From Clostridia bacterium (GTDB lineage Bacteria > Bacillota > DAOUPZ01): a stretch of 64,000 bases of DNA. Of the stretch, positions 41,721-43,233 are shown in pieces. Under the pieces are notes generated by a model. That model did not search any database, was not told where the DNA came from, and saw nothing but the letters and a program-made list of their open reading frames with translations. The position numbers and the translations under genes are program-made. The first letter of the stretch is position 1. Each line of letters opens with the position of its first letter. The DNA lies in contig DAOUPZ010000002.1 in NCBI GenBank assembly GCA_030625885.1, positions 130,545-194,544 on the forward strand, given 5' to 3'.

Positions 41721-42746
41721 ATGAAAACGGAAGACTTTGACTATAATCTACCCGAATCATTAATTGCCCAACATCCGATCGAGCCGCGGGACGCATCGCG
41801 GCTTTTGGTGTTGCATAAGGATACGGGTAAGATTGAACATAAGATTTTTAAGGATATAACGCAGTATTTAAAAGAAGGTGATACCCTGGTGTTGAATGAC
41901 ACAAGGGTTATTCCGGCGCGGTTGTTTGGGGTTAAAAAAGGGACAGGGGCTAAAGTGGAAATCTTGCTTTTAAAGCGGATTGACAAGGATACATGGGAAA
42001 CGCTGGTAAGACCCGGTAAGAAGTTAAAAGAGGGCGTTGAAGTGGTTTTCGGTAATGGGGAACTCACGGCGCAGATCATTGAACGTACGCCGTCAGGAGG
42101 CCGAATCGTTCGTTTTGCTTATGAGGGTATCTTTGAAGAGATTTTAGATCAATTGGGCAATATGCCTCTGCCGCCCTATATTCATGCACAGTTAGAAGAC
42201 AGGGAACGCTACCAGACCGTTTATTCTCGTGTTCAGGGATCTGCAGCTGCCCCGACGGCAGGCTTGCATTTTACCCCGGTGCTTATGGAGAAGCTAAAGC
42301 AAATGGGTGTTAATATGGCCTTTGTCACACTTCATGTGGGTTTGGGAACATTTCGGCCGGTTGCAGTAGAAAATATCAAGGAACATCAAATGCATTCCGA
42401 ATATTACGATGTCAGCCCTGAAACGGCAAAATTGATTAATGATACGAAAGCGCGCGGAAACCGTCTTTTGGTAGTAGGGACAACGTCTGTTCGCACACTC
42501 GAATCTGTAGCGGATGCTAATGGAATCGTACATCCGGGAAGTGGTTGGACGGATATCTTCATTTATCCCGGTTGTCAGTTTAAAGTAGTCGATACCATGA
42601 TTACCAACTTCCATCTTCCCAAATCTACGCTTTTAATGCTCATCTCTGCCCTGGCAGGAAGAGAAAATGTGCTGGCTGCGTATGAGGAAGCCGTACGAGA
42701 GCAGTACAGATTCTTCAGTTTTGGTGATTCGATGTTGATTATATAG
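41721..42746 (+). CDS. queA: S-adenosylmethionine:tRNA ribosyltransferase-isomerase
   Basis: [20 protein letters not shown]-terminus. Confidence 0.9.
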
Positions 42747-43233
42747 GTAAGTGGCAGCAGGTAGCAACCAGCAGGTAGGAGGTAGGGTTAATCAGGAAGG
42801 TGTGAGTATGGATGAAAAGAATGGGTTTGAAGATCTTAAGATTTGGCAGCTTTCTCATGGTTTAACCTTGCAAATTTATCAATTGACAAGGAGATTTCCT
42901 GATGATGAGCGTTATGGATTAACATCTCAGATACGTCGTTCAATGAGTTCTGTACCTGCCAATATTGTTGAAGGAAGAGGAAGGGCAACTAAAAAAGAGT
43001 ATATTCAATTTTTATATATAGCAAGAGGTTCTCTAGAAGAAACAAAATATCATCTTATTTTAGCAAAGGATTTGCAATATATAACAGGTGCAACGTGTGA
43101 TAATCTAATGGATCAATGTAAAGAAATAGGCAGGATGATTAATGGCTTAATTAACAGCCTTTACAGGCGAGGTAAAAAATTTTGAGTTAAAAACCTACCT
43201 GCTACCTGCTGTTTGCTACCTGCTAAAACCATC
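42746..43233 (+). repeat. CAGGTAG element carrying the four-helix-bundle gene as internal cargo
   Basis: left arm GGTAAGTGGCAGCAGGTAGCAACCAGCAGGTAGGAGGTAGGG (42746-42788); CDS 42808-43185; right arm AACCTACCTGCTACCTGCTGTTTGCTACCTGCT (43191-43233). Confidence 0.8.
42808..43185 (+). CDS. four-helix-bundle protein (23S rRNA intervening-sequence protein / Avd-like family), cargo inside repeat element
   Basis: [13 protein letters not shown] motif and overall similarity to paralog at 45325; ATG 42808 after AGGAAGG; sits exactly between a CAGGTAG left arm and right arm. Confidence 0.7.

Follow-up and report, generated by a model that had tools for sequence, protein, structure and literature searches.

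Small four-helix-bundle proteins of the PF05635/TIGR02436 family are annotated as "23S rRNA IVS protein" after the intervening sequences (IVSs) of 23S ribosomal RNA, whose open reading frame (ORF) was reportedly first described in 1993, and the family is said to have been an orphan ever since. What is a gene of this family doing between the protein-coding genes queA and tgt, enclosed by inverted repeats? The locus lies on a stretch of 64,000 nt from a Clostridia bacterium (assembly GCA_030625885.1, contig DAOUPZ010000002.1, positions 130,545 to 194,544 of the forward strand), which we refer to as the window and in which all coordinates are given unless another contig is named. A preliminary description made from the letters of the window had proposed that the gene is carried as cargo inside an element built of CAGGTAG repeats. 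We find that an intact gene of the family resides in the loop of a stem-loop of ~480 nt with arms made of 7-nt units in inverted arrays, and that throughout the protein family the gene usually occurs in genomes together with repeat arms of its own, the rRNA IVS being one special case. The element in the window is itself ordinary for its family, and the interest lies in the family-wide link to heptamer hairpins, of which we found no earlier description.

The gene and the hairpin that encloses it

The gene (42808-43185, plus strand) is an intact ORF of 125 codons whose 125-aa product carries the 13-letter protein signature pointed out in the preliminary description. Its assignment to PF05635/TIGR02436, likewise proposed there, is secure: In hidden Markov model (HMM) searches the product reached 142.9 bits with PF05635 (cutoff 33.8, E 5.1e-42) and 140.5 bits with TIGR02436 (cutoff 24, E 2.1e-41), and the product of a second four-helix-bundle paralog in the window (45334-45699, plus strand; 121 aa from its ATG, 50% identical to the first) was just as far above the cutoffs with 138.1 bits (E 1.5e-40) and 132 bits, respectively. 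The family is very large: A single initial search already yielded over 3000 clusters with E <= 1e-5. An AlphaFold2 monomer model of the 125-aa protein (pLDDT 93.4; helices at residues 11-27, 32-57, 62-88 and 94-123) was submitted to Foldseek, which placed the pentameric Xanthomonas protein 2GSC first (TM 0.87/0.94, 39-40% identity), followed by the Bacteroides protein 2RLD (TM 0.75-0.87) and then by Avd (4DWL/8UBE, TM about 0.75-0.88), the accessory protein of diversity-generating retroelements (DGRs). The structures of 2GSC and 2RLD are homopentameric rings of five chains each. The RxxxSxxxNxxE motif of the family (PMC3936711) is present as R44, S48, N52 and E55, all invariant across 16 diverse homologs. 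Pfam and NCBIfam searches with the window protein returned solely four-helix-bundle families and no transposase of the DDE or HUH/Y1 type, and PADLOC defence models gave no match. The idea of a HEPN-type RNase was dropped, as the protein lacks the Rx4-6H motif and no literature support was found.

The element fills the entire spacer from queA (41721-42746, plus strand) to tgt (43250-44380, plus strand; 43234-44380 including the AAAGGAG ribosome-binding site at 43234-43240). The queA stop codon (42744-42746) abuts the left or 5' arm (42746-42789), in which GGTAAGTGG is followed by CAGCAGGTAG and CAACCAGCAGGTAGGAGGTAGGG; the arm thus comprises one residual GGTAAGTGG unit (42746-42754) and then CAGGTAG-type 7-nt units, and is purine-rich with TAG on the sense strand. 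A Shine-Dalgarno-like AGGAAGG ribosome-binding site (42794-42800, plus strand) lies just within the stem, 7 nt ahead of the ATG of the gene. The right array AAACCTACCTGCTACCTGCTGTTTGCTACCTGCT begins 5 nt past the stop codon of the ORF, and this right or 3' arm of CTACCTG-type units (43191-43227, plus strand) ends 6 nt ahead of the ribosome-binding site of tgt. As an inverted repeat, the arms span 34 nt each (42756-42789 and 43191-43224), are 91% complementary and lie 401 nt apart, so the ORF does sit between a left and a right arm in the queA-tgt spacer as first described, and the closing stem was found in both the minimum free energy and the centroid RNA fold (z = -2.64). No sigma-70-like promoter was found between queA and the gene. 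The window contains no rRNA, and the element sits between queA and tgt instead of in a 23S (or 16S) helix; Rfam at gathering and permissive thresholds returned nothing on the arms or loops. The identity of queA was taken from the ORF list, from a Pfam Queuosine_synth match of an identical product on a contig of the source organism (L002) and from its likeness to queA of a sister sample (see below).

The window contains 92 copies of CAGGTAG where 3.4 are expected, and 0 of 100 shuffles had as many. The copies are grouped into about 15 pairs of clusters, plus before minus, that lie in intergenic spacers. The gene sits inside one such element and not between two of them, with the same X-loop-X' polarity (purine-rich arm first) as every gene-free element. 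Its arms align with the gene-free arms, and repeat clusters and arm alignment place the hairpins of the two adjacent spacers, spoIID-queA (41447-41688) and tgt-yajC (44384-44665), as its closest variants; the right arm at 43191-43227 is almost identical to those at 41656-41700 and 44633-44677. Shared polarity and arm homology therefore bear out that the gene lies inside a CAGGTAG-family element. It is the sole protein-coding content inside the CAGGTAG hairpins of the window, and its element has the best-matched stem among the 15. Neither tblastn nor blastn detected gene remnants in the gene-free loops, which argues against a recent origin of these elements by deletion of the gene.

Inverted arrays across the protein family

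Two samples of homologs were analyzed. Briefly, species-representative genomes were scanned with the window protein (sample 1: 79 loci at 44-57% identity, 70 of them testable, from Nitrospirota, Verrucomicrobiota, Gammaproteobacteria, Candidate Phyla Radiation (CPR), Planctomycetota, Bacteroidota, Clostridia, and others), and metagenome contigs were searched with the second paralog as seed (sample 2: 74 homologs). Arms were scored by reverse-complementing the 150 nt downstream of each gene and aligning them locally with the 150 nt upstream, with a score of at least 24 as threshold. This alignment replaced RNAduplex energies of the flanks, which were inflated in GC-rich genomes and separated the groups poorly; periodicity was judged from lag profiles, since a strict cutoff (0.75 over 35 nt) proved too harsh.

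The threshold was reached by 74% of the 70 genes in sample 1 compared to 5.8% of the long ORFs around them (n = 686, p 2e-29) and by 64% of the 74 genes in sample 2 compared to 5.7% of 229 controls (p 1.6e-18), while size-matched small ORFs reached it in 4.0% of 173 cases. The unit sequence varies by lineage (GGACTAC, TAGATCG, GGGGTAA, GGATTAG, GAGGTTA, GGCAGAA, AAGTCGTA), with a period of 7 in about 60% of the arrays and of 8 in about 30%; the best self-identity lag was 7, 8 or 14 in 55/70 and 54/74 upstream flanks as opposed to about a quarter of controls. Arms have a median length of 32 nt. The median distance from the end of the left arm to the start codon is 36 nt (sample 1) or 31 nt (sample 2), and that from the stop codon to the right arm is 5.5 nt or 13 nt, respectively. 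The median of about 4.6 units per array is biased by the detection threshold and, albeit fitting a reader made of five protomers, was not counted as evidence.

The purine-rich arm came first at 46 loci and second at 1 in sample 1 (31 versus 2 in sample 2). Since a hairpin reads alike on both strands, this polarity is a property of the element and not of gene orientation. Furthermore, the 5' arm closes all three sense frames at 19/40 loci, compared to 6.3 expected from composition, and the 3' arm does so at 9/40. The upstream neighbor is co-oriented with the gene at 65 of 69 loci (background 0.75, p 3e-5), and no such enrichment was seen for the downstream neighbor (42/62).

Further paralogs lie within 6 kb at 11 of 71 loci, and divergent paralogs of one locus (28-59% identical) almost always have different arm units. 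Gene-free clusters of matching units were found elsewhere within 6 kb at 14 of the 38 loci with clear arms, several of them as plus/minus pairs. Arms are present in both relatives found on viral contigs. Avd itself is out of reach of the family profile, and annotated phage DGRs were used instead: Their two avd genes overlap the reverse transcriptase (RT) gene, with arm scores at background (15 and 17). In one Clostridia metagenome-assembled genome (L053, 3987-8829), four paralogs follow each other in a row within 5 kb at a spacing of 1.3-1.6 kb (36-59% identical to each other's reference), with arm sequences that differ from copy to copy and with 2 of the 4 copies at background score. We found no literature that links heptamer inverted repeats to PF05635/TIGR02436 outside rRNA, which is not proof of absence.

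The locus in relatives and further repeats of the window

In one relative (L168, Tgt 74% identical), the row ruvB-queH-spoIID-queA-tgt-yajC has junctions of 18, 1, 11, 11 (queA-tgt), 106, and 69 nt with neither hairpins nor a four-helix-bundle gene, and the queA-tgt junction is empty. The junctions of this row in the window measure 138-379 nt and contain one hairpin each. Because the junctions are short in the former and hairpin-filled in the latter, we read the hairpins and the gene as insertions into a compact ancestral row. No target-site duplication was resolved, though the empty site was compared at 74% Tgt identity and is too diverged to show one. The nearest named relatives of Tgt (72-74% identical) belong to Alkalithermobacter, Thermohalobacter, Caminicella, Caloranaerobacter, and Anoxybacter. 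The T-box leaders of the window together with SpoIID, YunB, BofC, and SLH proteins identify its source as a spore-forming member of the Bacillota, an uncultured lineage within the Clostridia.

A sister sample (L082; QueA 90% and Tgt 94% identical at the aa level) carries an intact ortholog of the gene at the same site (67% aa identity), with arms of GTAAGTA/GTAAGTG units that are 36 nt long and 89% complementary; a GTAAGTG unit in the left arm of the window element matches them. In a more distant relative (L170, Tgt 77% identical), this site is likewise occupied by the gene (61% identity), which here contains one in-frame stop (TAA) and has a right arm of (CGAGCTA)x5. The gene was sought at this site without arms, and in both relatives it has them. 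Comparing the window to L082, dS is alike for queA (0.79), the gene (0.84), and tgt (0.68), from which we infer that the gene has been vertically inherited at the site; dN/dS of 0.07, 0.28, and 0.05, respectively, shows that it is under purifying selection, if looser than that on its neighbors. When rotated, the three types of arm unit (TAGCAGG, TAAGTGG/TAGTAAG, and TAGCTCG) have a TAG/TAA core in common, which points to gradual concerted drift and not to replacement by an unrelated element. In the neighboring spacers of the window and L082, the hairpins are kept while their units differ between both genomes.

The gene is therefore older at the site than its present arms, because its orthologs carry other arm units while its dS matches that of the flanking genes. 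The proposal of a gene carried as cargo inside a CAGGTAG element holds insofar as the gene is enclosed by CAGGTAG arms, but the direction implied by cargo does not, given this age and the units that differ in each relative. The gene is thus the constant part and the arm sequence the variable one, with the arms as a constant companion and not a chance vehicle. Decaying copies can still be armed, as in L170 (1-460, upstream of tgt) and in L084 (3779-4200), where a frameshifted copy lies between flagellar rod genes and is flanked by TCATAGC-type units.

The second paralog of the window starts 2.1 kb downstream of the first and has different inverted arrays, composed of GGTAGAAGG/GGTGGAAGG and GATAAAG units. 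Its left array (45060-45250, plus strand) contains 7-nt units of the GGTAGAA/GGTGGAA and GATAAAG types with a 69-nt super-repeat in three copies, and its right array (45707-45801, plus strand) is complementary to 45060-45206 (inverted repeats of 67 nt at 75%, 45 nt at 82%, and 23 nt at 91%). This unit is nearly without gene-free copies in the window, as 11 of 13 motif matches lie inside the paralog's own arms. A terminator-like hairpin with a T-run (45028-45053) is located right after yajC and just ahead of the left array. At 56740-57110, a 52-codon ORF (56893-57051, MEKEILELLCNIEKDNKEF...) lies between a GGTTGAAGGTAGAAGG/GATAAAG array and, on its downstream side, a TTATCTTTTA...CCAACTAACCAAC array; it does not belong to the four-helix-bundle family and may be a second kind of small gene in a repeat-flanked unit.

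The gene-free CAGGTAG hairpins, recognized as repeat clusters, number 14 in total. Besides the two adjacent ones they comprise that in the ruvB-queH spacer (38943-39223) and those at 963-1171, 12556-12875, 14452-14601, 17087-17371, 17579-17840, 30156-30285, 31830-32050, 33981-34237, 36082-36307, 36890-37137, and 39818-39952. Along the row ruvC-ruvA-ruvB-queH-spoIID-queA-tgt-yajC, nearly every junction contains one. Their loops are modular mosaics in which modules of 70-200 nt recur in varied combinations. A conserved hairpin module of ~38 nt (AATGGGGACATTCCGTAAGGTAYGAGCGGTGTGTCCCC) occurs in four copies (2140-2171, 17180-17211, 37015-37046, and 44560-44591), three of them within CAGGTAG loops; it had no Rfam match at E <= 0.5 in the stretch 30000-46400, which holds two of the copies; a structured small RNA and a nested miniature element are both conceivable. 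ACGAGGA/GAACGAA units with complementary CGTTCCTCGTT arms form a further short-unit hairpin family that shares these spacers (coordinates of such further families: 32920-33182 and 37775-37963; 17610-17800 and 34040-34190), GTAAGTA units like those of the L082 arms are found at about 32940-32965, and GACAATTG/GACAATGG modules are present in window spacers as well. Beyond the spacers, three tandem 330-nt repeats (54204-55163, 88-89% identical) lie within the gene of a 966-aa SLH/SWM_repeat/Big_5 surface protein, and Rfam matches at gathering score comprise two T-box leaders, an L20 leader, and a Moco/Tungsten riboswitch (5881-6100, 13134-13364, 8139-8274, and 52077-52211). Short-read Logan contigs of the source organism (L001 and L002, 1.4-1.6 kb) end at repeat arms, and many homologs of the family in the protein collection come from contigs of 0.5-3 kb; the hairpins seem to break short-read assemblies. 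No record matched the 125-aa product itself, and the 144-aa call and Tgt were confined to Logan contigs of this size (1.4-1.6 kb).

Mechanism, rival explanations, and meaning

The likeness to stem-flanked 23S rRNA IVSs that the preliminary description had drawn is borne out. In Coxiella, the IVS has a 28-bp terminal stem with three or four tandem GACAGAT heptamers before the S23p ORF and is excised by RNase III (PMC4990558). The IVSs of Coxiella burnetii and Leptospira (PMC4990558) and the element in the window have in common the protein family, the position of the ORF in the loop of a terminal-inverted-repeat stem, tandem heptamers just before it, the dependence on a host transcript, and the existence of ORF-less versions at the same kind of site. 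They differ in the host RNA (helix 25 or 45 of 23S there, the queA-tgt operon junction here), in RNase III excision, which is demonstrated there and predicted here, and in the state of the ORF, which in the window has a good ribosome-binding site and is under purifying selection whereas that of Coxiella is apparently decaying. Members of the family have also been reported in CPR rRNA insertions at several sites (PMC11270868) and between cas genes, e.g., cmr3 and cmr2 (PMC3936711). Avd (4DWL, 8UBE) shares the four-helix-bundle fold, and its pentamer binds stem-loop RNA from beside its own gene: By cryo-electron microscopy, five Avd protomers all contact an 11-bp RNA stem-loop encoded beside avd via flipped-out bases, and RNA downstream of avd is base-paired to the 3' end of its coding region (bioRxiv 10.1101/2023.10.23.563531). 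Unlike the genes studied here, the two avd genes examined have no repeat arms, and the identity of Avd to the window protein is about 15%.

To our knowledge, decades of cataloguing have not supplied bacterial tandem heptamer repeats, among them the cyanobacterial short tandemly repeated repetitive (STRR) sequences, with a mechanism or protein partner. Like the arrays described here, they are tandem 7-nt intergenic units, often in convergent pairs and with three-frame stops when read forward (PMC4692102, PMC4679880). Xanthomonas campestris has 186 GGGAATC arrays with 70 convergent-pair cases (about 70-75 pairs; PMC4692102), and array 15 is 6 nt away from bccP (XCC0517) and extends over the annotated start of XCC0516, which encodes the 2GSC protein, a position on which the authors are silent (PMC4692102 supplement); TAACTGA heptamers in Beggiatoaceae and cyanobacteria create stops in three frames in forward orientation (PMC4679880). 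These studies, however, read the repeats as G-quadruplex or regulator-binding sites and draw no tie to PF05635, and most published arrays are not beside a PF05635 gene.

Other repeat systems resemble the element in part. Repetitive extragenic palindromic (REP) sequences or REPINs and their REP-associated tyrosine transposases (RAYTs) likewise combine a small gene with flanking inverted short repeats that are also scattered gene-free in intergenic regions, and different gene copies pair with different repeat families. However, RAYTs are catalytic HUH/Y1 transposases, in contrast to a four-helix-bundle protein without known catalytic site, and REPs are single imperfect palindromes and not tandem 7-nt arrays. 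REP/bacterial interspersed mosaic elements (BIMEs), enterobacterial repetitive intergenic consensus (ERIC) sequences, and Correia elements of Neisseria are inverted repeats as well, dispersed over intergenic regions and co-transcribed with their neighboring genes; some such hairpins inside operons are cut by RNase III or stabilize the upstream mRNA. We know of none that is built of tandem heptamers or encloses a dedicated protein gene.

We favor, with moderate confidence, the reading that the element is an IVS-type hairpin cassette in mRNA that is transcribed by read-through and whose long closing stem probably serves as a substrate of RNase III and is probably bound by an Avd-like pentamer. 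Having no recognizable promoter, the cassette would be transcribed from the co-oriented upstream gene, and its arms would pair in the transcript to form a ~35-bp duplex that seals off the insert while the upstream stop codon and the downstream ribosome-binding site of the host are held adjacent at the base of the stem. Since the stem base would keep these host signals adjacent, insertion could be tolerated in tight operon junctions (11 nt) as well as in rRNA helices. The duplex would be of the type that RNase III cuts in rRNA IVSs, and such a cut would free a separate message for the small gene; the TAG-bearing 7-mers of the 5' arm would shut all frames to ribosomes that enter the element. Given the homology to DGR Avd, the repeat stem of the cassette is a probable binding site of the encoded protein, as are gene-free hairpins with matching units, and five protomers reading repeated units would account for both the tandem arrays and the paralog-specific units. 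The arms appear to turn over fast, and it would be a DNA-level process, i.e., slippage plus exchange between hairpins, that keeps them complementary instead of selection pair by pair.

Several points weigh against this reading. RNase III processing and protein binding are extrapolated from homologs only. Left arms in the window pair equally well with the right arms of their own and of other elements (36.1 versus 36.0, p 0.47), and arm mismatches have no sense-strand wobble bias (G:T 46, A:C 41), so neither measure shows selection on RNA pairing and complementarity could be purely a property of the DNA. The equality of own and cross pairing indicates that complementarity is held at the level of the repeat family, with no part played by selection on individual pairs; its upkeep is likely due to slippage and to exchange among hairpins, the latter suggested by the variants that adjacent elements have in common. 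No arms were detectable within 150 nt of 26-36% of the homologs, the seeds of both samples were proteins of the window itself, so that coverage is limited to that part of the family (35-57% identity), the controls are mechanical ORFs and not curated genes, and the contrast to DGR avd covers two phage lineages only. Read-through to the second paralog is less clear, given the hairpin at 45028-45053.

An RNA role may be dispensed with altogether if the arrays are created and renewed as a mere by-product of template switching and of slippage-prone 7-mers near an inserted gene, with no protein binding either. The lack of wobble bias and of element-specific covariation is what this explanation expects, and heptamers are, according to the citation of Mrazek 2007 in PMC4679880, the most slippage-prone bacterial unit size. 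We nonetheless think it quite unlikely, as it leaves unexplained why one gene family is bracketed, why polarity is near-universally purine-first, why stop codons are in excess in the 5' arm, why the right arm is placed few nt past the stop codon, and why RNase III excises the equivalent rRNA element in experiments. The arms would be equally irrelevant to the protein if a pre-existing CAGGTAG hairpin, similar to a miniature inverted-repeat transposable element, had been captured or invaded by an unrelated small gene; they are indeed homologous to those of 14 gene-free window elements, closest to the two adjacent ones, and interchangeable within the CAGGTAG family. Such passive carriage is very unlikely in our view, since the orthologs in L082 and L170 have other arm units at the site with dS matching the flanking genes, heptamer arms accompany 64-74% of homologs across phyla compared to 4-6% of other genes, the second paralog has a different arm family, and no other type of gene is found in the CAGGTAG loops of the window.

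The protein could instead be the active half of a REP/RAYT-like two-part system that recognizes, maintains, or spreads the hairpins, with the gene-bearing element as master and the gene-free ones as non-autonomous derivatives. In part this coincides with the stem binding of the favored reading, to which it adds propagation. Gene-free hairpins do accompany gene-bearing units in the window (14 to 1) and at 14/38 other loci, units are paralog-specific, the CAGGTAG hairpins of the window have no other protein-coding content, the protein shows purifying selection (dN/dS 0.28), its Avd relatives bind structured RNA and act as polymerase cofactors, and genomes reported as heptamer-rich (Xanthomonas, Nostoc) contain PF05635 members. 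What makes us consider this explanation rather unlikely is that the family has no known catalytic motif or fold (with neither a HEPN Rx4-6H motif nor a PADLOC match), that a site stable over a dS of about 0.8 and window paralogs at 50% identity give no sign of recent transposition, that gene-free loops are devoid of gene remnants, that the unit of the second paralog is hardly ever found gene-free in the window, and that no target-site duplication was resolved. That the protein is an orphan Avd of a DGR, finally, appears extremely improbable despite its resemblance to the Avd fold and a match to PHROG 3206 ("Avd protein of DGR", E 4e-16): It scores 43.9 bits with the NF033474 equivalog (second paralog 30.7) against a cutoff of 80, its closest structures are the non-DGR proteins 2GSC and 2RLD, no direct repeat pair resembling a template repeat and variable repeat was found in 30-58 kb, and no RT is among the neighbors checked across 32-57 kb (YunB, NadE, YebC, BofC, RuvCAB, QueH, SpoIID, QueA, Tgt, YajC, SLH proteins, and CtpB-like peptidases), in agreement with the preliminary description, which had seen no DGR components either.

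Extending the reading of an IVS-type cassette in mRNA, PF05635 proteins might be the dedicated partners of heptamer-repeat hairpins in general, including the GGGAATC pairs of Xanthomonas, cyanobacterial STRR-type repeats, and CAGGTAG. The five protomers of each paralog would then read their own unit of 7-8 nt, gene-bearing hairpins would be master copies and gene-free ones their targets or derivatives, and rRNA IVSs and DGR Avd would be two specialized offshoots of an older pairing of protein and repeat stem. We put this forward as a speculative proposal that is less likely to be right than wrong by a wide margin.

The association ties the orphan PF05635/TIGR02436 family to the unexplained heptamer repeats of bacteria. 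In practical terms, the arms seem to interrupt short-read assemblies, and they lengthen the intergenic spacers of otherwise compact operons. If most PF05635 members are enclosed by inverted heptamer arrays, as those of both samples are, then the rRNA IVS would be one insertion site of a general hairpin cassette, the heptamer repeats would gain a candidate protein partner that is directly testable, and Avd of DGRs would gain a plausible ancestor that already bound structured RNA of its own transcript.

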